Shown one piece after another: positions 1 to 47,378 of a stretch of 64,000 bases of DNA. The translations under genes were made by a program, and so were the position numbers. This stretch comes from Thermoplasmata archaeon (GTDB lineage Archaea; Thermoplasmatota; Thermoplasmata; Halarchaeoplasmatales; Halarchaeoplasmataceae): NCBI GenBank assembly GCA_046498385.1, contig JAWOAU010000059.1, forward strand, positions 76 through 64,075. The letters are read 5' to 3'. Position 1 is the stretch's first letter. Each line of letters starts with the position of its first letter. Under the pieces are notes generated by a model that had not been told where the DNA came from, made no database searches, and was given only the letters and a program-made list of their open reading frames with translations.

Positions 1-82
1 TGGCCGATTCGCGCCGCAGAAATTCTTGGAGCGCGCGCAGCGGATGGTTCTGCCGGGCTGCTTGGTTGAAAAACTCTCTCAT
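1..82 (-). CDS. 5' end of an unidentified gene running off the left edge (about 27 codons visible: MREFFNQAARQNHPLRALQEFLRRESA...)
   Basis: Minus-strand ATG at 80-82 overlaps the TGA of the upstream Dam fragment (ATGA coupling). A strong GGAGGAGG Shine-Dalgarno sits about 7 nt upstream. The frame stays open to position 1. Too short to assign a family. Confidence 0.35.
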   Translation of the reverse strand, partial: MREFFNQAARQNHPLRALQEFLRRESA

Positions 83-549
83 CGTCTCAGACCTCCTCCG
101 ACACGGTAGCTGATGATCAGGACCTCTCCAGAATCTCGCGCGGTGATGCCCGGCCTGCGCCCAGTACCGCGTGGAATCTTGATGACTTGATTACCTGCAA
201 ACAGCGCGACGATGTCAGGGTGTGCGGAAGTAGTCAGTGCCCATGACACGCCACGCTTCTTCGCATTCTGCAGAGCGGATGCCAGTCGGCGATGGTCTTG
301 AAAGCAGAACCGCCCACCAATGTAGTGTTTGTTGACCAGCTCTCTCTTTCCAGGGCGGTAGGGGGGATCCGCAAAGACAAAATCGCCTGACTCGCACTTC
401 TCTATGACTTCTTCGAAGTCACAGCAACGGAGCCTAGCCCCGCCCAGGACACGTGAAACGGCCATCAGGCTCCCGAGACCTATCACCCACCTTCGATCCT
501 GGCCTCCATAACCAACGTTGAACTTCCCTTCCTGATTGTGACGCCACAT
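79..549 (-). pseudogene. Dam-family (D12 class) N6-adenine DNA methyltransferase, C-terminal half only; the N-terminal roughly 115 aa including SAM-binding motif I are absent
   Basis: FADPPY motif IV. The surrounding sequence aligns to Dam ('RYNxxGEFNVpfG' maps to RHNQEGKFNVGYG; 'SNHDT' maps to TSAHPD; 'RRSISSNGGTRKKV' maps to RGTGRRPGITARDS). An in-frame stop lies immediately upstream of the first Met at 565-567 on the minus strand. No N-terminal half is found in any frame. Confidence 0.6.
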
Positions 550-566
550 CCCCTTGAAGCAGGGTC

Positions 567-3500
567 ATGGACAGCGAACTTCACATTGAGCACGAAATGT
601 TTTATGACCCAAATTACGATGGAATGCCGGATGAGGAGATCGAACCGGCTGATAATCACGAAAAGATACACGCCATGTATGCCCCTAACCGTGGCATGCT
701 TGGCGCGGGTCAATATCACGGTACCCACGTAACCGGTACTGTTCTTGGTAACGCACCTCCCCGCGACGAGTACGTAAAACACGACGGTCATGGAATGGAT
801 GCACGGGTGATATTCCAGGACATCGGTCGTCAACTGGCTTTATCACCACCGGAAAACATGTACGAAGATGGTTGGGGTAGAAGCATGGACGAAGGAAGTT
901 ATATTCACACCAACAGTTGGGGCGGGGCCGGAGGTTATTCAGGACTTGCCATCGAAACAGATGAATTCACCTGGGATCATAGGGATTACACCATATTGTG
1001 GGCCGCAGGTAACGATGGTCCCGATCCCGAAACGATCATGAACCAGCCCCACGCAAAAAATGCTTTATCAATAGGTGCTACTGCCAATCACCCCATCGAA
1101 GATAACGTCGCCGGTTTCAGCAGCAGGGGCTACGCCAACGACGGTCGTATCAAACCCACCATATTGGGTGTAGGAATCTGTACCTCCGCCGATCAAACGG
1201 AAGATGGTTATGCTGGTCTGGGTGGAACTAGTATGGCCACTCCTGGTATAGCCGGACAGGTGTCTCAGGTAAGGCAGTATTACGAAGAAGGCTGGTACCC
1301 TATAGGATATGCTAACCCCAGCGAAGGTTTCAACCCCAGCAGTGCGCTTATCAGGGCCACCCTCATCAACGGAGCTGTAGAGGTATCAGGTAACGATGCT
1401 TACTTACACGGTGAGGAATTCCCCAATAGAGACCAGGGATTCGGTAGGAGCACCATCGACCGTGCACTGTACTTTGAATGGGATGAAAGGCGTTCTGTAA
1501 TATTTGACTCGTGGAACGAAGGTAACGCTCCTCTGGAACTCAGTACCGGAGAGAGCTGGTCTATGGATTTCGATGTGGTTGATGATGCTGAAGAATTAGA
1601 GGTAACTTTGGCATGGTCAGATTATCCCGGCGAAGGTGGTGCCGGAAGTATACACATCGTCAATGATCTTGATTTGGAGTTGGAGACACCGGATGGAACC
1701 CGATATGTGGGCAACGCATACACCGGACACAACCCCGGTTACTCGGAACCCGACCCCACTTCCAACATGTGGAACGGACCCAGGAGCGGCGAATGGGACG
1801 GGTTGAACGTTGAGGAAAATATACTCATGCTCCCGGATCACAATGATCTTCAAACTGGAACTTATACGCTAACGGTAACTGCACACAGCGTACCCAGCGG
1901 TCCTCAGCCCTTTGCGGTAGTTGTAAGCGGAGGTTTACAACCTATAATGGCTGAAGGCACCCCTCCATCTATAGATATCACATCCCCCTCTGCAGGAGAT
2001 GTGTGGGAGCACGGAGATGAGGTTGACATCATATGGACTACCACTGCCGGAGCTGATCCAATAGACTTCGTTGACCTTAGATATAGTTTGGATAACGGAG
2101 AGTCCTGGGAGTTCATCGCTGAAGGATTACCGAACGACGGCTCACTCACATGGACCGTTCCCAACGTCAATAGCGCCGAGAGTTTAATACAGGCACGTGT
2201 CATGGACAATGCAGGCCGTTATGATATAGACACCTCTGATATGTTTGAGATCATGGGTACTCCTCCGGCACCCCCTTCAGGTCTAGGGGTACATAAAGAT
2301 GGTGGACCCACCGTTGTTACCTTCGAAGACTTTGCCGACGGCAATTACGACGGCTGGGAAGTACACAACGGAAGTTGGGATGCATCCGAGGGATATCTAC
2401 AGGGCTATGGAAAGATATCCACTCCCGCCGTGATGGACGGAGAAGACCTGGATGCCTACGGTGTCTGGGAGTTTGATTTCCAGTTTACCGACATGGACGA
2501 TGCCGGACCTACGGATGCACAGATAATGAGGTTCAACTTTATATCCTCTGGAAACCCGGCGTCACCTTCGGGATACGTTATGACTGTTACCGGGCAGACC
2601 GCAGCCGGTCCTCAAGCAAATCTTTGGCCATTGGAAAACGGTGATGCAATCGGTGACGCACCGATACTAGCCGGTACTTGGACTGGCGGCACACAAGTCA
2701 GCACATTGAGGATCGAAAGAGATTTAAGCAATGAATTTACCATATATATCGACGGAGGTCTGGTTGGTACAGTTGTCGATGACACGTATGCAACTACCGA
2801 ATACATAGGTTTCAACCACGATCCGAATCCTTTGGGTGGGGAACCGCACATAGTACATAACGTTGGGGCGTTGACAGAACTCGAAGGCGAGCCCCACAAC
2901 ATACTAACCTGGGACGCTAGCCCCGATGATCCCGGCGAAGTCAGTCATTACAACGTTTATCGTTCGGAGGATCAAACAGGACAATACGAATTAATAGCAG
3001 AGGTAACCGCCGACGGTTCACAGGAGTATACATACGTTGATGAATACAAAGGTGAAGATGACGACATAACCTGGTGGTACTTTGTACGTGCGGTAGGTAT
3101 AAACGGCATGGAAGAGGACAACGAGAACACAGCGCCGGAACCTGCCGACGGTGAGGCACCTTCTATAACACTGACCAGGCCTGAGGGTGGTGAAACATTT
3201 ACAGCCGGAGAACAAGAAAATATCCTTTGGCAAACTGAAATAGGTGACAACCCCGTAGAGACTATAGATTTCAAGTACAGTACTGACGGAGGAGGTTCTT
3301 GGACTACAATAGAGACTGGTTTACCCGATACAGGTAATTACATCTGGACAGTGCCCGACGAAGCTAGTATTGACTCTCTGGTCGGTGCAACCGCTCGGGA
3401 CTCAGCCGGACGCACTGGTTCCGATGTCAGCGGTACGTTCATCATCGAAGGAATCCCCCCTTCACCTCCGGAGAATCTGATGGTTGAACATCATGGTACT

Positions 3501-4856
3501 CCCGAGGCCGTCGTTAACGGTATATTCGAAGGTGATTACGAACCCTGGGAGCTTACCAGAACGGTTGCCGAAGGCGAGGCACGCTGGGACTCGGAGAATT
3601 ATATTGAAGGAGGTTCCATCTATGTGGCGGTCGAGGCTGAAGGAGAAGGTACTATCCGCACAGAAGACTCCTATTGGGAACAGGATATAACTCCCACCTC
3701 TGAGGAGATAACGGTATCCGGTGCATTCAGAAAGAACATATTCTATGATTCCAATTCTGGAATTGGTTGGTCTTGGGAAACACATGTCCATCACGCTATC
3801 GTTGAAATCCTTGTCTACGATACCACGTCCGGATGGCAGACTGTACACATAGACCAAGACACATCCGTCGGAGATTCGGGCTGGGGTGAATTTGCCCCGA
3901 TTACTTATGTGCCTGATGGATATGCGGATTCGGTAAGGTTGCGTATGCATGTAGAGGCTGAAGGAGACACCGGCCCCGCGGGTGGAAACCATACCGCTAT
4001 AGGCGAACTATGGATGGATCATATCAGCGTGACCACAGAAGGGGCCGAGGGTACCGATGACAATCTACTCACATGGGATGCCAGCCCTGACGATCCTGAT
4101 TCGATAAGTCATTACAACATCTACCGTTCCGAAAGTGAGGCCGGTCCCTGGGAAATTCCCATAGGTAGTGTTGATGCCGATGGTTCACTGGATTACGAGT
4201 ACTTAGACGCTGGCGCGGGTACCGGAGACGATACGATATGGTGGTATGTAGTCAGAGCAGTGGGAACCAATGGTATGGAAGAAGATAACAGCAATGTGGT
4301 ACGTGAGCCAACCACGGAATTGGTCACCTACGACATTGAGTTGCATGCCCATATTAATGCGGATGGCTGGAACTTCGTTTCGTTCAATCTGATACCTGTA
4401 GAATCATCCCTGGAAGCCATACTGGAGCACTCTGACTACGGCATAGCTGGTAACTACGACAAAGTGATGTACTATGATGCATCTGCGGATAGTTGGCATG
4501 TTTATGTACCCGGACGACCGGACCATTTTAACAACCTTCAATCTTGGAACCATAGGATGGGTATCTGGATACGATTGACGGAGGATTCTACACTCACCGT
4601 AGAAGGAAGTATCCCGACTCAGACCACCATAACCTTATATCCAGGCTGGAACATGGTCGGTTTACCGAGTGCCCAAGGGGGAATTCATGATATTCCCAGT
4701 GAGGTCAGCAGGGTAGGACGATTCGATGCGGCGGCAGAGAACAATATAGTGTATGTAGACGTGCAAGGATTCCAATTCCAACCCGGACAAGGCTATTGGA
4801 TATACAACGGTGCGGATGTAGCTGTAGATTGGGTTGTGGACTACAATACGGAATAG
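567..4856 (+). CDS. Subtilisin-like (S8) serine peptidase with large C-terminal multidomain extension. Apparently N-terminally truncated (no signal peptide, propeptide or canonical Asp-box), so possibly a pseudogene
   Basis: His box HGTHVTGTV and Ser box GGTSMATPG are present and an oxyanion Asn region follows. The ORF begins 49 aa before the His box with an in-frame stop at 555-557. Downstream are two Kre9/Ig-like modules of about 95 aa, a lectin/jelly-roll-like module, two FN3-like modules (TWDASPDDP...HYNIYRS...WWYVVRAVG) and a C-terminal domain of about 172 aa shared with the M14 protein. Confidence 0.8.
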   Translation: MDSELHIEHEMFYDPNYDGMPDEEIEPADNHEKIHAMYAPNRGMLGAGQYHGTHVTGTVLGNAPPRDEYVKHDGHGMDARVIFQDIGRQLALSPPENMYEDGWGRSMDEGSYIHTNSWGGAGGYSGLAIETDEFTWDHRDYTILWAAGNDGPDPETIMNQPHAKNALSIGATANHPIEDNVAGFSSRGYANDGRIKPTILGVGICTSADQTEDGYAGLGGTSMATPGIAGQVSQVRQYYEEGWYPIGYANPSEGFNPSSALIRATLINGAVEVSGNDAYLHGEEFPNRDQGFGRSTIDRALYFEWDERRSVIFDSWNEGNAPLELSTGESWSMDFDVVDDAEELEVTLAWSDYPGEGGAGSIHIVNDLDLELETPDGTRYVGNAYTGHNPGYSEPDPTSNMWNGPRSGEWDGLNVEENILMLPDHNDLQTGTYTLTVTAHSVPSGPQPFAVVVSGGLQPIMAEGTPPSIDITSPSAGDVWEHGDEVDIIWTTTAGADPIDFVDLRYSLDNGESWEFIAEGLPNDGSLTWTVPNVNSAESLIQARVMDNAGRYDIDTSDMFEIMGTPPAPPSGLGVHKDGGPTVVTFEDFADGNYDGWEVHNGSWDASEGYLQGYGKISTPAVMDGEDLDAYGVWEFDFQFTDMDDAGPTDAQIMRFNFISSGNPASPSGYVMTVTGQTAAGPQANLWPLENGDAIGDAPILAGTWTGGTQVSTLRIERDLSNEFTIYIDGGLVGTVVDDTYATTEYIGFNHDPNPLGGEPHIVHNVGALTELEGEPHNILTWDASPDDPGEVSHYNVYRSEDQTGQYELIAEVTADGSQEYTYVDEYKGEDDDITWWYFVRAVGINGMEEDNENTAPEPADGEAPSITLTRPEGGETFTAGEQENILWQTEIGDNPVETIDFKYSTDGGGSWTTIETGLPDTGNYIWTVPDEASIDSLVGATARDSAGRTGSDVSGTFIIEGIPPSPPENLMVEHHGTPEAVVNGIFEGDYEPWELTRTVAEGEARWDSENYIEGGSIYVAVEAEGEGTIRTEDSYWEQDITPTSEEITVSGAFRKNIFYDSNSGIGWSWETHVHHAIVEILVYDTTSGWQTVHIDQDTSVGDSGWGEFAPITYVPDGYADSVRLRMHVEAEGDTGPAGGNHTAIGELWMDHISVTTEGAEGTDDNLLTWDASPDDPDSISHYNIYRSESEAGPWEIPIGSVDADGSLDYEYLDAGAGTGDDTIWWYVVRAVGTNGMEEDNSNVVREPTTELVTYDIELHAHINADGWNFVSFNLIPVESSLEAILEHSDYGIAGNYDKVMYYDASADSWHVYVPGRPDHFNNLQSWNHRMGIWIRLTEDSTLTVEGSIPTQTTITLYPGWNMVGLPSAQGGIHDIPSEVSRVGRFDAAAENNIVYVDVQGFQFQPGQGYWIYNGADVAVDWVVDYNTE

Positions 4857-5512
4857 CACTATAAGCCGATACTATAGGCACCTGTATGTGTTAAGTTCGC
4901 AATATCCTTTTGCACTTCTTCACCCGGTGCTCTATCCCCATAAGTTTTGCATCGTCTCTAATCTCCATTAGAGACATGAAACCTCTTAGCAGATATCATC
5001 GGGCCTTCTGTTTCGTTAGGGAGAATATATCCTTCAAAATTATTTCTATATCGGCGGTTTGGGTGACCACCTTGTTCGTCCGGCGGTACAGGGATTTCAT
5101 CGATGTACGGTGCCATGGTTTATTTCTCTTGATCGGATGATTTCTCACAGATAGAATAATTTTGGAGCTGTTTCCGAACAAGGTTTTGCTCAAAATCGAT
5201 TGAACGTTCATACGGGTTAAAAATAAAACAAGGACGTCGATATTTTTTTCCTTACACATGTTTTTTATCTCCCGAGATGTGTTCAGTATCTCGAAAATGT
5301 CACCAAGGGGATTTGTCCTTCCTTGTACCCCAAACAGATATGCCTGCCCTTGTATTCACAGGTGGGTTCGACGTGGTAAAAAGACAGGTATGTGACATCA
5401 TGTTCCCCTTTCATGAAAACTTGTTCCCAGTTGCACAGAGTTCCTCTCGGCACCTCCGCCTATTCTCAAACTGGAGATCACTATGAGGATGCTCTTTTTT
5501 CCTTCATGCCTT

Positions 5513-6477
5513 TTACTCCCTCCCCCGGTGCTTCAAAGACCTACGGTAAGTGTCTATGATGGTATCAACTACTTTTTGCTTTGACAGTTCACTTTCGTAA
5601 TATTCGATCATGTTCTTTTTCATGTTCGCCTTTGCTTCATGATCCTCCATGAGATAACCGAGTTTGTCTGCTATGTCTTCCTCATCCGGCTCCACCAGCA
5701 GGCCGTTGTATCCGTTTCGTATCTCCTTGGGACTCCCCCTAACGTTGGTTGCGATAACAGGTGTTCCGGTGTATGTCGCTTCCAGCAGCACACTGGACAG
5801 GGGCTCCGGTCATAGGGAAGGTACCACCACGATATCCGCCTGTTTGTATACTGAGTGTATCAAATCATGGCCTACCTGTCCCAGAAACTCAATGTTTGAA
5901 ATCGCCCTGCTTTCCAGTTGTTCTCTTTCGGGACCTTCTCCCAGCATGATTAATTTTGGAGTCCGTATTCATCCGATCAAAGGCTTTTATCAGCATATCG
6001 ACGCCCTTAATCTTGTATAAACTGCCCATATAAGCCCACCAGCACACCTTCGCGTCGGATATCGATCTTTTTCTTCGATCCCCGGATATCGGGTATGTTG
6101 ACCACATTGGTGATACGGCTTTTATCGATGCCTTCTTGTTCAAGAAGTTTGTTTATGAACCCGCTTAGACTGAAAAAATGTCCAAATGTTTTCAATACCT
6201 TTTTTCTCTTGATAAGATCCAGGTATAAGGCCAGCCAGAATAGCGGATTTACTTAAGATAAGTTCCCTTTGGGGCAGAAACTTACGTAGGAATTGATGGT
6301 GACGAAACTGGGTTTATCAACGTCAACCATGCGGGTCATGTTGAAAAAGTGTATTATATCGTACCTGTCGCTGATCCTCTCAAGCCCTCTTTTAACGCTT
6401 CTGTTGAAATGAAACTTACGTTTTAGATCGTCCGAAAGTGATGTGCACCCTGCATTGAGCTTTCTGAGAATCGTCAA
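5513..6477 (-). pseudogene. Family GT4 (GT1-fold) glycosyltransferase pseudogene split over at least 4 reading frames
   Basis: Four minus-strand fragments: 6253-6477 'DIIHFF' N-terminal motif; 6007-6195 'ITNVVNIPDIRG'; 5889-6143 'YMGSLYKIKGVDMLIKAF'; 5513-5791 'EATYTGTPVIATNVRGSPKEIRNGYNGLLVEPDEED' (classic GT4 C-terminus). They are in different frames, so there are multiple frameshifts. Confidence 0.65.
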
Positions 6478-6882
6478 GCCATGTTTTTTTCAACACGCTG
6501 CAGACCCTGAACCTGAGAAGTCAACACGGTGACCTCCATACCGTTACGTTGTGCAAGGACCGAAGCTAAAGGTGCGCAGGGTGTTTCCCCGCCCCTATAG
6601 CTTACAGGTGGAAAAGACTCGGACACGAACAATATCTTTATTGAGTCATTGACCTTGGGGCTAACTCATTCTTTCATATCAGTACACCTAGATCGGCTTA
6701 ATCATTTTAAACTGCATGCATGCAGGTCTGGGAGGTGCGTATGAATCGTGCATAGATGGTGGTAGAGAAAAAGCACGATGATGGATACCGGTAAAAAGCG
6801 GTTTTTATTTCGGTAAATACCCATCAACTTTATTTGTAGCCTATGACATGAGGTTTTCACTCGGTTATAATGGAGGAAATAT

Positions 6883-9800
6883 ATGTTTAAAAACGCAAAA
6901 AAAAGTAAAGTGGTAGCTATATCTGTTTTATTGATTTTATCCATTTCTGCATATGGTATAACATCCCTTGGATATGTCGAAGATGTTCAAAGCACGAAAT
7001 ACACTGCTAATCGCTCACCGTACCCGTTCCCCGATCATTATCCCAGTGTCGAAGAACTCTACGATTGGTACGACGACCTGGTAGTAGAATTCCCCAATCT
7101 CGTCTCCAAGGTGCACATAGGCACGTCCTATGAAGGACGAGATTTATGGGTGCTGGAAGTCACTTCGGATGAAGATACACAGGTGGATTACAAGCCCGGG
7201 TTTTTCGTTGACGGCAACATGCACGCCAGGGAGTGGTCGGGTAATCAGGTATCGGCGTACTTCATGTGGAGGCTGCTCAATGAATACGATACCAACGAAA
7301 CCATCTACTGGCTGCTCAACAACCGCAGGATATACGTTATGCCCATGCAGAACCCGGATGGGTATACTTATGATGGAGACGGAGGAGTAGGAGGCGGAAA
7401 TAATTGGCGCAAGAACAGGAACGATTCCACTCCTACCGCTGCGATAGGTGTAGACCTGAACCGCAATTGGGATATAATGTGGGAAAGCGGTAATCCTGAT
7501 CCAGGCTTCGATGATTATCGTGGCGAAGCACCCTTTTCCGAGTACGAGAACTGGCACGAGAGAGATTTCATTCTTAACAACAGCATAGATTCATACCAGA
7601 ACATTCACAGCTATGCAGGTACCTTGCTGATACCTTTGTGTTACTCTTCGGACCCCTCACCTCATGATGATTGGTATCGAGGTATGGCATCCCATATGAC
7701 TTCCTTGACGTCCCTGATGGGTGACGAAAACAGCCATTACAGTTTTGGTCAGCCCCATGAAGAGATCGGTTACAGTGCCCCAGGAGGTGCCGGGGACTGG
7801 ACCTATGATGCCCTGGGAATCCAATCAATGGTATTTGAACTTGAAACCGGCGGCGGCGGATTTTATCCTGGCACGGATGACATAATGACCATAAACCAGG
7901 ATGTTGACGACTCCTTGGTCTATCAGTGCCGTGTCGCTGATACGGATTTGGGCGATGGCACAAATCATCTTTACCCACCCATACCGTACATTGTTTACGG
8001 AAGGGTGGAAGATCCCGAAGGCGTACCGGTAGCTGGAATGGAGGTTGTGGTGGAAAACAAAGATACGGGGGAAACCATATCCATAGACACGGATGGTAAT
8101 GGATACTACGAGTTGAACTACGGTAACCTGGTAGAACGCGGATACGCCCTCACCGATACGTTTCATATCTCCGCATGGACCAATTCACAGGAGTTCAACA
8201 TCGGTGATGAATGGGGTAGAAGGATCGACATGGAGGTTGTGGTTGGAGGCGTACCGCCGGAAATAACCCTAACATCACCTAACGGGGGTGAACAATGGCA
8301 TGCATTTGATGAGGAGGATATCACTTGGACGACAAATCAGGGTGACGACCCCATCGATCATGTTGATCTATGGTACAGTGTAGATGCAGGCACGAGCTGG
8401 GACCGCCTTGATACGGAAATAGACGATACGGGTAGTTACACATGGACGGTCTCCAACGAACACAGCCAGGAATGCCACGTACGTGCACGGGTAATAGATA
8501 GTTTGGGTAGATGGGGAGAGGATGTTAGTGATAACGTATTCGAGATCGTAGGCTTGGCACCCGGACCTCCCCGAAATCTTACGGTAGAGCATGACTCCGC
8601 TCCTCACATGGGGATATTCGACGATTTTGCCAATGGAAACTACGACAATTGGACGGTTTACGATGGATCATGGGATGCGACCTCCGGTTACCTACAGGGC
8701 CATGGTAGCATATCCACTCCCGCAGAGATGCACCAGGAAAACATAGGTGCATATGGTCGCTGGGAGATAGATTTCCAACTATCCGAGATCTCCGATGCCT
8801 CAGGATATCAAATCACGAGAAGCCATTTTATTCAGATCGATAACGCGGATCCACGTTATTCCAGCGGTTATTATGTAATAATTACAGGTAATATCGGTGG
8901 TAACGGACAGATCAACCTCTGGAGGTGGGACAACGGAAGCACACCGGGTAGTACGACCGCCGGTGCATCCTGGAACCCGAATACAGACACAAACACATTG
9001 GCAATAGAGAGAGACGAGAGCGGTGTATTCACCCTGTACCTCAACGGTGCCACACTGACCACGGGAACGGATAATACCTACACAACTAACCAATACTTTG
9101 GATTCAGGCACAATGAAAATCCTTCTGGAGGTGATGATCATATCATACATGAGATCAGGATTGAGACCATGGGTGATGGAAAGGAACACAATATTCTTAC
9201 ATGGAATCCAAGCATCGATGACCCCGACGAGGTGAGCCACTACGATATTTATTGCTCGGATTCGCCAGAGGGGCCGTGGGATGAAAGTATGTTACTGCAC
9301 AGTGTCCCAGCGAACGGTTCCGCTGAATACCACCACCTTGATTCCTTTAAAGGCATGGCAGATGAAACCTACTGGTGGTATGTGGTACGTGCGGTTGGAG
9401 AGAACGGGCTTGTAGAGGAGAACGTCAACGCTATACAGGAGCCCGGTGCGGAAATTATTACATTCACTTTGGAGTTGTACTCGGGTGGAGATTCCAACGG
9501 CTGGAACTTTGTTTCATTTAATCTGACATCTCCTGATAGCTCATTGGAAAACATACTTGAAAATCCGGACTACGGTATATCAGGCAACTATGATCGGTTG
9601 ATATACTTCGACGCTTCCGCCGGAACATGGCTTTCATACGTTCCCGGTAGGCTCGAGTGTTTCAACAATCTGCAGTCGTGGGACCATACCATGGGGATCT
9701 GGATAAGGATGACAGCGGATGACGGACTTACCATAGAGGGCACCACGCCAACAAATACTACTCTCACACTGCAGCCCGGCTGGAACATGGTAGGACTGCC

Positions 9801-9990
9801 CAGTTCGGATGTGGGCAATCATAACCTACCGGCGGAGGTGACCACGGTGGGCTACTTCCAAGCAGCGGAGGAGTACAATGTTGCCTATACCACCATTGCT
9901 GATACCTTCATATTCGAACCAGGACAGGGTTACTGGCTGTACAACAGCGGGAACCAAACGGTAGCCTGGACCGTAGATTACAGGTTATAA
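6883..9990 (+). CDS. Secreted M14 zinc carboxypeptidase with carboxypeptidase-regulatory-like domain and C-terminal multidomain extension
   Basis: N-terminal signal peptide (KVVAISVLLILSISAYG). M14 zinc motif 'GNMHAREWSG'. Transthyretin-like CarbopepD_reg domain (GRVEDPEGVPVAGMEVVVENKDTGE...TDGNGYYEL). Then Kre9/Ig-like, lectin-like and FN3-like modules, and a C-terminal domain of about 173 aa paralogous to the S8 protein C-terminus. GGAGG Shine-Dalgarno 8 nt upstream. Confidence 0.85.
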   Translation: MFKNAKKSKVVAISVLLILSISAYGITSLGYVEDVQSTKYTANRSPYPFPDHYPSVEELYDWYDDLVVEFPNLVSKVHIGTSYEGRDLWVLEVTSDEDTQVDYKPGFFVDGNMHAREWSGNQVSAYFMWRLLNEYDTNETIYWLLNNRRIYVMPMQNPDGYTYDGDGGVGGGNNWRKNRNDSTPTAAIGVDLNRNWDIMWESGNPDPGFDDYRGEAPFSEYENWHERDFILNNSIDSYQNIHSYAGTLLIPLCYSSDPSPHDDWYRGMASHMTSLTSLMGDENSHYSFGQPHEEIGYSAPGGAGDWTYDALGIQSMVFELETGGGGFYPGTDDIMTINQDVDDSLVYQCRVADTDLGDGTNHLYPPIPYIVYGRVEDPEGVPVAGMEVVVENKDTGETISIDTDGNGYYELNYGNLVERGYALTDTFHISAWTNSQEFNIGDEWGRRIDMEVVVGGVPPEITLTSPNGGEQWHAFDEEDITWTTNQGDDPIDHVDLWYSVDAGTSWDRLDTEIDDTGSYTWTVSNEHSQECHVRARVIDSLGRWGEDVSDNVFEIVGLAPGPPRNLTVEHDSAPHMGIFDDFANGNYDNWTVYDGSWDATSGYLQGHGSISTPAEMHQENIGAYGRWEIDFQLSEISDASGYQITRSHFIQIDNADPRYSSGYYVIITGNIGGNGQINLWRWDNGSTPGSTTAGASWNPNTDTNTLAIERDESGVFTLYLNGATLTTGTDNTYTTNQYFGFRHNENPSGGDDHIIHEIRIETMGDGKEHNILTWNPSIDDPDEVSHYDIYCSDSPEGPWDESMLLHSVPANGSAEYHHLDSFKGMADETYWWYVVRAVGENGLVEENVNAIQEPGAEIITFTLELYSGGDSNGWNFVSFNLTSPDSSLENILENPDYGISGNYDRLIYFDASAGTWLSYVPGRLECFNNLQSWDHTMGIWIRMTADDGLTIEGTTPTNTTLTLQPGWNMVGLPSSDVGNHNLPAEVTTVGYFQAAEEYNVAYTTIADTFIFEPGQGYWLYNSGNQTVAWTVDYRL

Positions 9991-11112: not shown

Positions 11113-14100
11113 ATGGTTTCGGCAACAGTGAAAGATAGGATAATAATACATTTGTATACTTATCATGCTTCTCTGACTAAGCAAGGGATGCCCTATGAAT
11201 TATCTCAACCAGGTATTGCTGATGCCATAGGCATAAGCAGACCTCATCTGAGCCAGGAAATACGGAAGATGATACAGGATGAACCAACCTTGGTTAAAGA
11301 AGAGGTCATGCGGGTAAAAGGATTAAAGCGAAAAAGAAAGGTGTATTTCCTGACTCCGAAAGGAGTTTTAAAGGCACAATCATCGGTAGAAAAATTCAAT
11401 GAAGAAAGCATAACTGTTCTTACTTCGGATGGTAAAAAAGACGTCAAATTAAAAAACATCGGTACACATATAAAAGGGAACAACCCTCTTGTTACCGCTC
11501 TATCCAGAGTAGATGCAAAGGGTGTGTTGGACCTTACCGAGGCAAGAGAGTTCAAGGAGGATATATTCATAGACCGCAAAGAGGAAATGGCGGTACTTAA
11601 AAGCTCATTGAAAGAGGCAAGTGAAGAAGGCGGGAAAGTTTTTTTCGTCAAAGGAGATCCAGGTATCGGCAAGACCAGACTCCTAGAGGAGTTTGAAAAA
11701 CATGCATCTAGCGAGGATTTTATCTTTCTTTCCGGCAGAGCATATTTTGAGAGTTCGGACCCTTACCTTCCTTTTAAAAAGGCCTTCGAAGGCACAAAAG
11801 ATTTGGATCACTCTATGGATATTATCTATCCCGATGAAAAAAGAACAAAGGCGGAAGATAAGAATATGTTTGATTATCATAGGAGGACAACTTTCTTTGA
11901 GATAACCAAAGACATTAGGCACATGATAGACAAAAAGCCAATGGTCATATTTTTAGATGATATACAATGGGCGGATTCTGCAACACTGCAGTTGATTCAT
12001 TATCTTTCTGAGAATTTAGAAACATCGCCACTGCTGCTGATCGCCGCCTTTAGACCACAGGATGTAAATATGAACACTCTTTTAAAAGAGATCGTTCAAC
12101 GGATGAGGCGGGTAGGAACCTACGAGGAGATAGAATTAAAACCCCTAAAGTGGAAGCATACAAAAGAGATCATATCCAATATGTTGGGCGTATCCAGGAC
12201 ACCACCTGAATTTGTTAGATTACTTTATGAACTATCCCAGGGTAATCCTCTTTTCATTAAAGAGTGTGTAAAGAGTTTGATCGAAGAGGGCAATTTGGAT
12301 CCAAAGAGGAACCGATATCCCAAGGACCCTAGGCACGTCACCATACCCAATATTATTGTCAGCATAATTGAGAGAAGATTCAGCCAGTTATCCGAAGAAA
12401 CGCTTAAGATGCTCCAGATAGGCTGTATTATAGGAGAGGAAATACCCTTCGATCTGCTGTTAAAAGTTTGTGGGATGGACGAACTCGATGCATTCGACCA
12501 CATAGACATACTGTTGGGAACAAGTATATGGAAGGAGTTACCGGATCAGGACAAGTTTGCCTTCAGCCATGCATTGGTGCATCTAGCGGCATACAATCGA
12601 ATAAGTGATATCAAGAAAAGAAAGTTGCACAAGGCGGTGGCCGAGAAACTCGAAGAGCTATACGAAGAAGACATAGAAAAACATCATTCCAAACTAGCGA
12701 AGCATTTTGAAAGGGCGGGCATGATAGATAGGTCGATATCTTATTATTACAAAGCCGGTAAGAGCGCTGAAACAGTATATGCTCAAGAGGACGCTTTGGA
12801 GATGTATCAGAACGCTCTGAGGTTGTGGGATGGAGAGGATAAAGAACCAGGTATGAAACTGATGGAAAGTTTAGGCGACGTAAATTCTCTTTTAGGTGAT
12901 ATATCCTCCTGTAAGAAGTATTATGAACGGATATTAGATGAAACCGATAACGAGGTTACCGAACAAAGGATGTATCGTAAACTAGCCCGGTTGTGCGAGA
13001 CCCAAGGTGATTTTCGGAGGGTGAAAGAACTTGTAGACAAAGGTCTCGATAGCTATAAAAAGGATAACATCGAGGCGTGTAGATTGTATGAGATCCGGGG
13101 CTGGACATTGATGCAGACAGGGGATTTCCAAGGTGCGGAAGAGATGTTCATTACGGAAAGGCGTCTTTCTGAAGATTTAGGAGATCGAAAGGCCCTCAGC
13201 GATTCAAATCATAATCTAGGTACTTTGATGGTGTACAAAGCTAATTATGATGATGCCCGTCGATATTTAAAAGACGCTTTGAGGATACGTGAAAAGATCG
13301 GGGACAAAAAAAGCATAGCCAAGTCTTTGAATAATTTAGGCGTAGTTTACAAATGTACGGGGGACATAGAAGATGCTTTGGAAACCTATCAACGGTGTTT
13401 GGAAATAGAAAAGGAGATAGGTGATAGAGGAGGGATCGCGGCAACATCAGCCAATTTGGGGACTCTTCAGTATATGAACAATAATCCCAAGGAGGCCGGG
13501 GAGAACTTTGATCATGCCTTGGAGATATTTAGAGGTATAGGTGATAAGATGGGCGTTGCCATGGCCTACAATAATCTAGGCATAGTTCAGTTAGCCATGG
13601 GTGATCTAGAGAGTGCCCTCGAGTATCAAAAGAGAGGTCTTGAACTCCGAAAAAATGTGGGTGATAAACCCGGCTTGGGGATGACCCATGGTATCATAAG
13701 CAGCGTTTTTATCTTGAAGGGAGAACTGGATAAGGCTAAAGAACATATCGATGAGGCCTTTACTTTTTTCGAAAAGATCGATGATGTGAAAGGAATGGCT
13801 CTCATGAAGTCTCTTAAAGGAGATATTAAAAATGAGAACGAGCAGTTCGACGATGCAATAAGTTTGTACGAAGAAAGCCACAAAACTCTAAAACAGATCG
13901 GAGAGAAGTTTGAAAACATATCCAACTGCTGTCGACTGGCCGAGGTATATACTCATGTGGGAAAGTTAACCGAAGCCCGTAGGATGATAATCGAAGGCAT
14001 TATGCTTTCGAAGATGGTGGGTACGGATTATGATAAAGAAGTCTTCCTTAGGATATTAGGGATGGTCCTTCGAAAAGAAAAAAACTTCAAAGGCAGTTTT

Positions 14101-14310
14101 AAGGTTTTGAACAAAGCGGCAGGGCTCCTTGAAAAGAATAAAAAGTACATGGAACTTGCTAGGGTCTATTATGAACTAGGTAAAACTTTTTTGGAGGTCC
14201 ATGACGTACCTAATGGCAAAAGAAATCTTGCCAAGGCGAGAAACAAGTTCAACTCCATGGACATGGAACGCTGGAGTGCCCGAGCCCAGGGGATGTTAGA
14301 CGATATCTAA
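11113..14310 (+). CDS. Multidomain regulator: N-terminal winged HTH, STAND/AAA-type NTPase, C-terminal TPR array
   Basis: wHTH-like N-terminus (SQPGIADAIGISRPHLSQEIRKM). Walker A GDPGIGKTRLLEEF and Walker B-like VIFLDDIQWAD. At least 8 TPR repeats (NNLGVVYKCTGDIEDALETYQRCLEIEKEIGD...). Paralogous to the ATPase domain of the protein at 41768-43234. Confidence 0.7.
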   Translation: MVSATVKDRIIIHLYTYHASLTKQGMPYELSQPGIADAIGISRPHLSQEIRKMIQDEPTLVKEEVMRVKGLKRKRKVYFLTPKGVLKAQSSVEKFNEESITVLTSDGKKDVKLKNIGTHIKGNNPLVTALSRVDAKGVLDLTEAREFKEDIFIDRKEEMAVLKSSLKEASEEGGKVFFVKGDPGIGKTRLLEEFEKHASSEDFIFLSGRAYFESSDPYLPFKKAFEGTKDLDHSMDIIYPDEKRTKAEDKNMFDYHRRTTFFEITKDIRHMIDKKPMVIFLDDIQWADSATLQLIHYLSENLETSPLLLIAAFRPQDVNMNTLLKEIVQRMRRVGTYEEIELKPLKWKHTKEIISNMLGVSRTPPEFVRLLYELSQGNPLFIKECVKSLIEEGNLDPKRNRYPKDPRHVTIPNIIVSIIERRFSQLSEETLKMLQIGCIIGEEIPFDLLLKVCGMDELDAFDHIDILLGTSIWKELPDQDKFAFSHALVHLAAYNRISDIKKRKLHKAVAEKLEELYEEDIEKHHSKLAKHFERAGMIDRSISYYYKAGKSAETVYAQEDALEMYQNALRLWDGEDKEPGMKLMESLGDVNSLLGDISSCKKYYERILDETDNEVTEQRMYRKLARLCETQGDFRRVKELVDKGLDSYKKDNIEACRLYEIRGWTLMQTGDFQGAEEMFITERRLSEDLGDRKALSDSNHNLGTLMVYKANYDDARRYLKDALRIREKIGDKKSIAKSLNNLGVVYKCTGDIEDALETYQRCLEIEKEIGDRGGIAATSANLGTLQYMNNNPKEAGENFDHALEIFRGIGDKMGVAMAYNNLGIVQLAMGDLESALEYQKRGLELRKNVGDKPGLGMTHGIISSVFILKGELDKAKEHIDEAFTFFEKIDDVKGMALMKSLKGDIKNENEQFDDAISLYEESHKTLKQIGEKFENISNCCRLAEVYTHVGKLTEARRMIIEGIMLSKMVGTDYDKEVFLRILGMVLRKEKNFKGSFKVLNKAAGLLEKNKKYMELARVYYELGKTFLEVHDVPNGKRNLAKARNKFNSMDMERWSARAQGMLDDI

Positions 14311-45484: not shown

Positions 45485-46360
45485 ATGTCTGGTGCAGAAT
45501 CATTTGTGGAAACAACATCTAAGGCGGCTATACCGGTAGCTATGATTGCGGTATCCTTCGCGGCGGTGCTCATACGACTATCGCATTCTCATCCCTTTAC
45601 CATAGCTTTTTATCGCATGTTCTTCGCCACCCTTATATTACTACCGCCGCTCTACTTCAGAAGAGAAGAGATCAAGAGGATAACTAGATCGGAATGGAAT
45701 ATCCTCGTATTAACAGGGATATTCTTAGCCATCCATTTCGCCGCCTGGATATCCTCTCTTCGATACACCTCGGTTGTTTCTTCCGTGGTTTTGGTCACCT
45801 CTCATCCTTTGGTTGTAACGTGGGTCTCAGGGTGGTATCTAGGTGAAAAATCCGGCAGGACGGCTTACATGGCCATCCTTCTATCATTAGGGGGGATAAC
45901 CATAATGGCGGTATCCAACTACCAGGCGGAGGGTTGGTCCTTGTTCGGGGACATTCTCGCCATCGTGGGCATGCTGGCATTTGCGGGGTACATAATCCGG
46001 GGCAGACAGATGCGCCGGACCATGTCTACAGTTACTTATTCTTTCGTTGTATATGGTGTTTCATCTCTAGTTCTCGGGGCGATGGCATTTTTCTTTGTGG
46101 GCGGTGTTACTTCACAACCTCCTAGAGAGTACTTGCTGTTCTTGTCCCTGGCGGTGATACCAACAATATTCGGTCACACACTTTACAACTGGGCCCTTAG
46201 GTTTGTCCGCGCCCGATTGGTCTCAGTGAGTCTTCTGGCGGAACCCCTCGGGGCCTCCCTACTTGCTTTTATTATCTTGAACGAGGTTCCTCCGTATCTA
46301 ACCGCCCTAGGAGGGGCCATAACTCTCATAGGTGTGTTTATCTGCTCTAGAAGTGAGTGA
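45485..46360 (+). CDS. EamA/DMT-superfamily transporter (10 TM)
   Basis: Two EamA repeats (FYRMFFATLILLP... and the second half). The start is chosen at the MSGAESF Met; the first 43 codons of the track ORF (45356) look non-coding. Confidence 0.7.
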   Translation: MSGAESFVETTSKAAIPVAMIAVSFAAVLIRLSHSHPFTIAFYRMFFATLILLPPLYFRREEIKRITRSEWNILVLTGIFLAIHFAAWISSLRYTSVVSSVVLVTSHPLVVTWVSGWYLGEKSGRTAYMAILLSLGGITIMAVSNYQAEGWSLFGDILAIVGMLAFAGYIIRGRQMRRTMSTVTYSFVVYGVSSLVLGAMAFFFVGGVTSQPPREYLLFLSLAVIPTIFGHTLYNWALRFVRARLVSVSLLAEPLGASLLAFIILNEVPPYLTALGGAITLIGVFICSRSE

Positions 46361-46361
46361 A

Positions 46362-46678
46362 AAACCGGGTCACCGAGGTTGGCGCTCATCACGCTCGTGA
46401 GGACTCCAAGATCCTTCTCGACCCCGCTACCCATCGAGCATCGGTAGTCCACGGTAGGACTGCTCCCTTCCGGACCTGGCCCGTTCTCCGCGGCAAAGTT
46501 AAAGGGGAACGACCCTCCGGTTGTCCCCAATAACACCTCCGATCCCGAAGGACGAGATCTCACAGTTGGACCTTGGCTCATGAACGGGATGATTACGCCG
46601 CCCCCGGCGGTCACCCCCGCGTATCGACGTTTTCGGTGTATAAGGGCACGCCGAACGCCCCGGTTAGACCCGGTGACT
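46362..46678 (-). ncRNA. ffs: Signal recognition particle RNA (7S/SRP RNA), about 315 nt
   Basis: GC-rich structured segment. The minus strand contains the universally conserved helix-8 motif GGGCCAGGUCCGGAAGGGAGCAGUCCUACCGUGG (cf. bacterial/archaeal GGUCAGGUCCGGAAGGAAGCAGC). The 5' CCGGGUC pairs with the 3' GACCCGG and is followed by UUUU. A TATA box lies about 24 nt upstream. The two track ORFs over this region are spurious. Confidence 0.75.
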
Positions 46679-47323
46679 GTCACTATCACCCACGGTATAT
46701 AAGGTTTTATCCTCTTTCACCGCTATTACGTAGTTGTTTTCTCCCGACAGGAAGGATTCTTCCACCTGGAGACCGGACTTTATAACATCTTCCTCTAATT
46801 CATCTAAAGTATAGAGGTGGTAGTACCTCTCAAAGACAACGCCGTCATCCCTTGTCCAGGGAACGATCACCTCTCTTTTTTTGTCGGGTATGTCCCACCT
46901 ATCCGACTCTCTGGACCACGAAGAAACCAATAGCTTACCATCGGTCCTTAGGATTCTTTTACACTCTTTCAAACTTCTTACTTTTCCTTCTCTTAGGTGA
47001 TGTATGGCCGCTATGTACAGCACGCCGTCGAATGATTCGTCTTTGAAAGGTAGTAGTCTGGTATCTCCCTTTATATAATCCCCCTTTTTGCATCTTTGTT
47101 TGGCAATTTTCAACAACTCGACGGAAGCATCTAATCCCACAGTTCGTAAATCCTTCTCGACCGCGGCTGAACAATGCCTTCCGTTTCCACAGCCCAAATC
47201 AAGTATGTCCCCTTCGATGGCTCCTATAAACTCCTCCACATCTTTCCAAGGACGGTTCCTGGTCTTGTCAAAATGATCTGCTATGGAATCGAAGAGCTCT
47301 CCCATGTTGTTTTTTTTGTTCAT
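46664..47323 (-). CDS. Class I SAM-dependent methyltransferase (Methyltransf_11 type)
   Basis: Motif I ILDLGCGNGRH, motif post-I VGLDAS, motif II/III region (FDGVLYIAAIHHL, LRTDGKLLVSSW). Start chosen at MNKKNN; the track ORF starts 51 nt upstream at 47374. Confidence 0.7.
   Translation of the reverse strand: MNKKNNMGELFDSIADHFDKTRNRPWKDVEEFIGAIEGDILDLGCGNGRHCSAAVEKDLRTVGLDASVELLKIAKQRCKKGDYIKGDTRLLPFKDESFDGVLYIAAIHHLREGKVRSLKECKRILRTDGKLLVSSWSRESDRWDIPDKKREVIVPWTRDDGVVFERYYHLYTLDELEEDVIKSGLQVEESFLSGENNYVIAVKEDKTLYTVGDSDSHRV
46697..46703 (-). promoter_or_regulatory. Archaeal TATA box (TTATATA) with A-rich BRE-like sequence upstream, for the SRP RNA. It lies inside the last 15 codons of the methyltransferase gene
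   Basis: Minus strand TAAAACC-TTATATA-CC, about 24 nt upstream of the inferred SRP RNA 5' end. Confidence 0.45.
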
Positions 47324-47378
47324 GTTTGTGGTTACATCGGGACAAAATTTATATTCTTTGTGATAGCTCCTCACTCAA

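Follow-up and report, generated by a model that had tools for sequence, protein, structure and literature searches.

The 64-kb window analysed here (64,000 nucleotides of contig JAWOAU010000059.1, assigned to a Thermoplasmata archaeon; all window coordinates refer to this stretch) opens with what is left of two unrelated genes, i.e., a Dam-family DNA methyltransferase gene on the minus strand and the gene of a giant secreted subtilase (peptidase S8) on the plus strand. We confirmed that both genes are truncated at their 5′ ends and joined to each other at one two-base breakpoint, bases 562–563. The reading that we favour, with a probability of roughly 0.55, is that this breakpoint is a genuine and recent product of illegitimate recombination in the chromosome of a Thermoplasmata-like archaeon; its main competitor is an artificial join between two sequences whose genes are intact in their organisms. 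On either reading, the two open reading frames (ORFs) should be annotated as remnants or pseudogenes, rather than as a methylase and a 1429-aa protease. The junction itself represents no new biological system but something well known, either the scar of an ordinary rearrangement or a join made in assembly.

Two gene remnants joined head to head

The remnant of the Dam-family (D12 class) N6-adenine DNA methyltransferase occupies bases 79–561 of the minus strand, as delimited by the PF02086 and TIGR00571 profiles, an alignment with its relatives and tblastn. Its ORF spans 79–549, with an in-frame TGA (565–567) 15 nt upstream of the ATG. The ORF matches PF02086 over profile positions 122–241 of 253 (39.9 bits vs. 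a gathering score of 22) and TIGR00571 over positions 116–241 of 267; the latter match scores 77.1 bits, under the cut-off of 114.85, and a full-length relative reaches 179 bits with the same model. The aligned relatives (n = 9, 260–275 aa, 62–76% identity) carry ~115 extra N-terminal residues, and by BLASTP the remnant is 72–81% identical to many proteins of 260–275 aa. What is kept are the C-terminal ~160 codons, which align from the relatives' residue ~116 onwards, while the N-terminal ~115 codons are gone. Across these 160 codons (62–81% identity to relatives) every invariant residue is retained, including the catalytic motif IV DPPY (ORF residues 61–64, window 358–369, minus strand), which is invariant in the alignment. 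The S-adenosylmethionine (AdoMet)-binding motif I (FxGxG; EPFVGGGAVFF in the relatives) is missing, and tblastn did not find it elsewhere in the 64 kb. In D12-class methylases, motif I binds AdoMet, and its loss abolishes cofactor binding. The remnant is best read as an inactive fragment of a family member, not as a working methylase.

The remnant of the S8 peptidase occupies bases 564–4856 of the plus strand and was delimited by PF00082, an alignment with its relatives and the two paralogues of its closest available relative. The ORF itself (567–4856, 1429 codons) is preceded by an in-frame TGA at 555–557, 9 nt upstream. The region of homology, which begins one codon earlier, comprises 1430 uninterrupted codons in which all family-invariant residues are kept. 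The ORF matches PF00082 over profile positions 49–288 of 288 (96.9 bits vs. 21.8), and the codons of the catalytic triad, D2 (570–572), H51 (717–719) and S222 (1230–1232), are all present; together with the oxyanion residue N149, they fall in invariant columns of the alignment and in the order typical of the family. The first-pass annotation, made from the letters of this stretch alone, had described the peptidase as lacking a signal peptide, a propeptide and the Asp box. The signal peptide and N-terminal domain are indeed gone, but the catalytic Asp is retained as D2. The Asp box reads ITVMDSELY in the relatives (within GQxITVMDSEL) vs. V-MDSELH in the window, so that only V-M is left before the Asp. 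In subtilases, this Asp stands at the end of a strand of the central sheet. The missing part amounts to ~300 N-terminal residues, comprising the signal peptide, the N-terminal domain and the β-strand that leads up to the catalytic Asp. In those relatives that reach their own N-terminal Met, ~300–330 residues precede the Asp box and consist of a hydrophobic, signal-like N-terminus followed by an N-terminal domain.

The best relatives of the S8 remnant come from metagenome-assembled genomes (MAGs) of Thermoplasmata and Natronoplasma, with 55–57% identity over the protease domain, a protein-pattern scan of species-representative genomes returned relatives of at most 55% identity only, and exact look-ups with four proteins of the window gave no match. 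The closest available relative is a soda-lake Thermoplasmata MAG (PUNG01000115.1, 3582–13474; L004), which carries two tandem full-length S8 paralogues of 1781 and 1463 aa. These align to window base 564 from their residues 299 and 306, respectively. With giant S8 paralogues in tandem, genes of this family could be prone to recombination as well as to assembly breaks.

The 60 nt in front of the S8 ATG have a guanine-plus-cytosine (GC) content of 52% and the least AT-rich profile among the 36 genes examined in the window, and they hold neither an AT-rich patch nor a TATA-like box. The genes that lead transcription units in the window have AT-rich upstream regions, several of them with TATA-like boxes 23–38 nt before the ATG. 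Therefore, the S8 remnant lacks a promoter of its own. A signal peptide is likewise absent from the S8 ORF and present in the neighbouring secreted M14 peptidase. Without signal peptide and promoter, a secreted multi-domain protease of this kind will not arrive at the place where it acts.

The positions at which the two homologies end agree between protein alignment, tblastn and DNA alignment. The Dam-family homology, running through the invariant CFKGMWRHN, stops at base 561, and the S8-family homology opens with V-M-D-S-E-L at base 564. The breakpoint (562–563, GG, without strand) is assignable to neither gene, and at most 3 bases can be common to both homologies. The remnants lie divergent, head to head and blunt, both cut at arbitrary codons and with zero spacer. 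The first-pass annotation had the 5′ ends abutting within 17 bp; the abutment is real, but the distance is shorter, since the homologies meet within 2 bases. Its ORF coordinates and upstream in-frame stops were reproduced, and its claim that both genes are 5′-truncated at the same point is borne out by the profile coverage and by the alignments to full-length relatives.

The ATG codons of both ORFs correspond to Met codons conserved inside the full-length relatives and are therefore not genuine starts. Since both truncations are defined against many homologues and both start Met residues are conserved internally, the truncations are not a chance pattern. A tblastn search with the N-terminal 120–340 residues of the relatives found no trace of the missing N-terminal halves in bases 1–563, in bases 564–900 or in the rest of the 64-kb window, neither the N-terminal part of Dam nor that of S8. 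The total missing sequence exceeds 1 kb (~345 nt of Dam, ~900–990 nt of S8 and any spacer), in agreement with the earlier estimate of at least 1 kb. As proposed, no shared promoter region is left between the two genes, and the view of both as inactive relics is still the best reading for both pieces.

Beyond its protease domain, the S8 remnant has several features in common with the M14 carboxypeptidase encoded at 6883–9990. A C-terminal domain of ~170 residues (~4350–4856 in S8, ~9480–9990 in M14) follows the pattern ...GWNFVSFNL...GIWIR...GWNMVGLPS...GQGYW.YN in both, and the two proteins also have in common internal modules, i.e., repeated domains of the type NILTW.ASPDDP..VSHYN.YRS and a Kre9/KNH-like immunoglobulin (Ig) domain. 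The occurrence of the C-terminal domain in both proteins suggests a surface-anchoring or sorting domain of the secreted peptidases of this archaeon. Within the S8 gene, a 73-nt direct repeat (73% identity) at 2896–2968 and 4060–4132 reflects a duplicated domain, which is present in a single copy in the M14 peptidase.

The cassette behind the methylase remnant

Downstream of the Dam remnant, bases 1–82 of the minus strand encode the first 27 codons of a HerA-like DUF87 ATPase gene (MREFFNQAARQNHPLRALQEFLRRESA), which runs off the left edge of the window; the assignment rests on the translation and on the N-terminal match to relatives. Its ATG (80–82) overlaps the Dam stop, bases 79–82 being ATGA, and a Shine–Dalgarno-like motif, GGAGGAGGT, lies upstream of this start codon at 91–99 (minus strand), inside the 3′ end of the Dam remnant. 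At the same position, AGAGGAGGA is conserved in the DNA alignment of three relatives (L003, L015 and L016). The translational coupling of Dam to a downstream gene, noted in the first pass, is thus real, with a GGAGG-type motif that is conserved in the relatives. The 670-aa DUF87 proteins found directly downstream of Dam relatives begin with MKEFFDQAARQNHPLRALKEFL and MKQFFDQAAQQNHPLRILKDFL, and the 27 codons of the window show both marks by which we recognised the cassette, an N-terminus of the pattern M-[KR]-x-FF-x-QAA-x-QNHPLR and the ATGA overlap. The best N-terminal match, 23 of the 27 residues, is to a protein of a Chloroflexi MAG. When the 27 residues were grafted onto the HerA protein of a relative and used as a query, no database protein with an identical N-terminus was found.

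In the relatives, the order is Dam, then a DUF87 ATPase of 664–670 aa, then a protein of 441–445 aa. We encountered this three-gene order in four neighbourhoods that are unrelated to each other, L001/L002, L003, L015 and L016 (coordinates 6001–10185 in L001, 167–4344 in L003, 1180–5354 in L015 and 7001–11178 in L016), and it is from these relatives that the Dam–HerA–(~441 aa) cassette is defined in this analysis; it is not a curated family. The GC content of the cassette differs from that of its flanks in every context (0.49 vs. 0.43, 0.44 vs. 0.51 and 0.40 vs. 0.49), and its neighbours are often other defence genes, e.g., a type IIG-like methylase/nuclease, PycTM and PIN. More than 2300 database proteins belong to the ATPase family; the best 120 of them show 64–85% identity to the query and stem from several bacterial phyla as well as from some methanogen-related archaeal MAGs. 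Those closest relatives of the cassette that carry an organism name are mostly bacterial. Matches of the relatives' DUF87 protein to the anti-phage HerA models are weak (e.g., 52 bits vs. a curated cut-off of 800). For the third protein, apart from a weak zinc-ribbon-like match, we found no match in PADLOC, NCBIfam and PDB, and none above threshold in Pfam. A shallow literature search found no description of a Dam–HerA system.

Taken together, the three genes look like a mobile defence-type cassette, which may be an undescribed modification-linked defence module. The first-pass annotation had taken the Dam gene for the possible remnant of a restriction–modification operon and had asked whether the gene left of position 1 is a restriction endonuclease. 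This view is not upheld: the start of that gene matches a HerA-like ATPase, the partners of Dam are this ATPase and the ~441-aa protein, and since no endonuclease is recognisable in the cassette, it is not a classical restriction–modification pair, although the third protein, for which no structure prediction was run, may conceal a nuclease fold. A phage or plasmid origin of the Dam piece was also considered and rejected, since phage and plasmid collections returned only distant Dam matches (<40% identity) and 2.9 million viral contigs contained one relative of 59% identity.

A further 5′-truncated Dam gene, independent of that in the window, was found in an unrelated metagenome contig from ENA (k141_5925547, 1–452; L018), where it is followed by the ATPase gene of the same cassette type. 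Its homology starts from residue ~100, i.e., at another codon than in the window, and is preceded by 390 nt of unrelated DNA. This upstream DNA holds a 56-aa ORF (MMTKPKRKTTVKKEEPPDVLFGRVVSILEQARSNVVRAVNSNMVLAYWLIG...) that resembles the N-terminal fragment of another gene.

A genuine breakpoint or an artificial join

The right-hand 63.4 kb of the window form a coherent, well-packed archaeal chromosome with no other blunt junction. They carry an archaeal signal recognition particle (SRP) RNA gene, tRNA-Gly, gyrA/gyrB, leucyl-tRNA synthetase, an oligopeptide transporter and several large secreted peptidases, and their gene content identifies them as the chromosome of a Thermoplasmata-like archaeon. 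The first 563 bases stand out, with a GC content of 57.4% vs. 45.3% elsewhere, above that of every other 563-nt sub-window of the 64 kb. Codon usage left of the junction is also atypical, its log-likelihood lying 2.9 standard deviations below that of same-size host segments (z about −2.9). We considered composition as a judge between a real and an artificial join and rejected it, as the cassette also stands out from its surroundings wherever else it was found.

Both truncations, the position of the junction to the base, the nature of the cassette and the lack of a promoter-like region are directly observed; we infer that the join exists in the organism, and likewise the type of event and its recency. 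A horizontally acquired cassette of Dam, HerA-like ATPase and ~441-aa protein would have adjoined the giant subtilase gene, or landed inside it, and a single illegitimate-recombination event would then have made the join through a deletion of at least ~1.3 kb across both 5′ ends. Alternatively, an already truncated foreign fragment may have integrated into the protease gene, or the junction may be one end of an inversion whose other end lies outside the window; an inversion within the 64 kb would leave the missing halves in the window, where none was found. The first-pass annotation had named a deletion, as the simplest explanation, and an assembly chimera. Both are still live explanations, but a simple deletion between neighbouring divergent genes is only one of the natural routes; foreign DNA inserted in truncated form into the S8 gene fits equally well, and so does an inversion.

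Such an event would have removed the AdoMet-binding N-terminus of the methylase and the cassette promoter on one side, and the signal peptide, N-terminal domain and promoter of the protease on the other. The methylase remnant would be unable to bind its cofactor, and the protease remnant, without its own promoter, would be neither exported nor properly folded; both would be pseudogene remnants with internal Met codons as their apparent starts. This predicted loss of function follows from the absence of parts that are present in all full-length relatives and, for S8, from the lack of a promoter-like upstream region. Loss of the cassette promoter would probably also silence the coupled ATPase gene and so make the loss of the methylase tolerable.

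Several observations argue for a genuine event. The step in GC content and the atypical codon usage are as expected for the insertion of a real cassette, because wherever the cassette was found, its GC content departs from that of the flanking DNA. The at most 3 shared bases leave no room for the shared k-mer of a typical de Bruijn-graph chimera. The truncated Dam gene of L018 provides an independent precedent. A broken glycosyltransferase gene downstream of the S8 remnant suggests that gene decay is ongoing locally, and we also count in favour of a real event that members of the ATPase family are found not only in many bacterial phyla but also in archaeal MAGs. On the other side of the balance, a 28-mer spanning the junction had no match in the metagenome collection, i.e., a second copy of the junction was not seen. 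Apart from the cut, the remnants are pristine, which fits a very recent event and an artificial join equally. If unmethylated DNA is restricted by the downstream genes, loss of the front part of the methylase could do harm, which would be softened by the simultaneous loss of the operon promoter. Furthermore, microhomology or another recombination signature is not identifiable without the parental sequences; our search for repeats, inverted repeats and target-site duplications at the junction found none.

The competing explanation, that two unrelated sequences were joined end to end by assembly, spacer-free scaffolding, contig concatenation, or a chimeric read or clone, is a serious one, to which we give somewhat less than even odds. 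The left sequence, which may belong to another organism, would end in the Dam gene of the cassette and the right one would begin in the S8 gene of the archaeon, both genes being intact in their organisms. A blunt, base-precise and spacer-free junction that cuts both genes at arbitrary codons, with neither fragment otherwise damaged, is what such a join predicts, and GC content and synonymous codon usage switch exactly at the junction; however, this compositional step is equally expected of a real copy of a mobile cassette. Strain-variable defence islands and paralogous gene families are places where contigs are prone to break, and the nearest relative has two tandem S8 paralogues. A graph-based chimera, however, normally needs a shared k-mer, for which the few shareable bases do not suffice. 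The mostly bacterial names among the closest cassette relatives also fit an artificial join, but the cassette family does occur in archaea, a comparable truncated Dam gene exists in another, independent contig, and the other 63.4 kb are coherent and well packed.

That both ORFs are natural and functional short forms, i.e., a Dam domain that works as its C-terminal part alone and an S8 protease that starts Met-Asp and acts inside the cell, is very improbable. Both ORFs begin with ATG, the S8 ORF keeps its triad residues and stays open for 1429 codons, and two database proteins, P0147 and P0216, likewise begin at MWRHN. These two were rejected as natural short Dam forms, one being the truncated copy of L018 and the other a gene cut by a contig end (L019). 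The parts missing from the window are present in every full-length relative and include motif I of Dam and the S8 strand that ends in the catalytic Asp; the absence of a signal peptide, which the neighbouring M14 peptidase has, and of a promoter-like AT-rich region upstream of the S8 ATG also speaks against a functional short form. The possibility raised in the first pass that homologues naturally begin at these positions thus fails, since no full-length homologue does so. The possibility of an upstream in-frame extension of one gene, masked by a local sequencing error (an indel or base error around 550–567), fares even worse and is regarded as refuted. The sole indication of it is that the in-frame stops lie so near, 9 and 15 nt upstream. 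Whatever the frame, what precedes each ORF is coding sequence of the other gene, and tblastn with the relatives' N-terminal residues found nothing in the window.

Within the reading of a genuine breakpoint, we consider a more specific version rather unlikely: a fragment of a bacterial-type Dam–HerA cassette would have been end-joined into the archaeal protease gene, and 5′ decapitation of the methylase would be a recurrent off-switch, as the truncated gene of L018 might exemplify. If true, it would hint at a costly, restriction-like defence system not yet described.

Neighbouring genes and relation to known systems

A few further features of the window deserve a brief description. A family-4 glycosyltransferase gene at 5513–6632 (minus strand; possibly also 4996–5259) is broken into pieces in different frames, with Glycos_transf_1 positions 54–100 and 109–169 falling in separate ORFs. 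Flanked by two intact ORFs, each longer than 1000 codons, it represents a decayed pseudogene or else a stretch where the sequence is locally poor. Bases 11113–14310, with the peptidase genes on one side and a metallo-β-lactamase/flavodoxin gene on the other, encode a protein of 1065 aa whose AAA_16 ATPase domain precedes long TPR arrays, a STAND/MalT-like architecture. The only other part of the window that nears the GC content of the first 563 bases is the archaeal SRP RNA gene (46363–46675, minus strand). Two mechanically called ORFs, 46183–46689 and 46664–47374, overlap this RNA gene, and the former is probably spurious.

The importance of the junction lies mainly in annotation and quality control, as bases 562–563 are a possible misjoin that bears on assigning the left 563 bases to the archaeon. 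If the join is real, it records the recent loss of a defence-type cassette and of a large secreted protease, which is routine genome flux. The item of wider interest is the Dam–HerA–(~441 aa) cassette, which lies almost wholly outside the window and whose third gene has no recognisable family.

Each remnant can be set against the family from which it derives. Like the giant secreted S8 proteins of soda-lake Thermoplasmata and Natronoplasma MAGs, the protease remnant has the D/H/S triad, the oxyanion Asn, 55–57% identity in the protease domain, and a long C-terminal array of Ig-like and repeated domains; in contrast to them, it lacks the signal peptide, the N-terminal region of ~300 residues, the strand before the Asp, and the promoter region. 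The methylase remnant resembles the Dam family (D12 class, α-group; PF02086, TIGR00571) in its 62–81% identity and in the DPPY motif with its surroundings, whereas the N-terminal ~115 residues with FxGxG are absent and its NCBIfam score is below the cut-off.

With regard to the cassette, we note likenesses to two kinds of known systems. Its 664–670-aa DUF87 ATPase, with weak model matches, and its frequent vicinity to other defence genes recall the HerA/DUF87 anti-phage modules (PADLOC HerA; NCBIfam "anti-phage-associated helicase HerA"). However, it scores far under the curated cut-offs of these models, its third gene belongs to no recognised family, and the window holds only 27 codons of the ATPase. 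The described SIR2–HerA and DUF4297–HerA systems are not known to include a Dam methylase as a partner. Like a classical type II restriction–modification operon, the cassette has a methylase that is translationally coupled to downstream genes, and it is mobile and compositionally foreign; in contrast to such an operon, it has no recognisable restriction endonuclease, in place of which stand the HerA-like ATPase and the ~441-aa protein.

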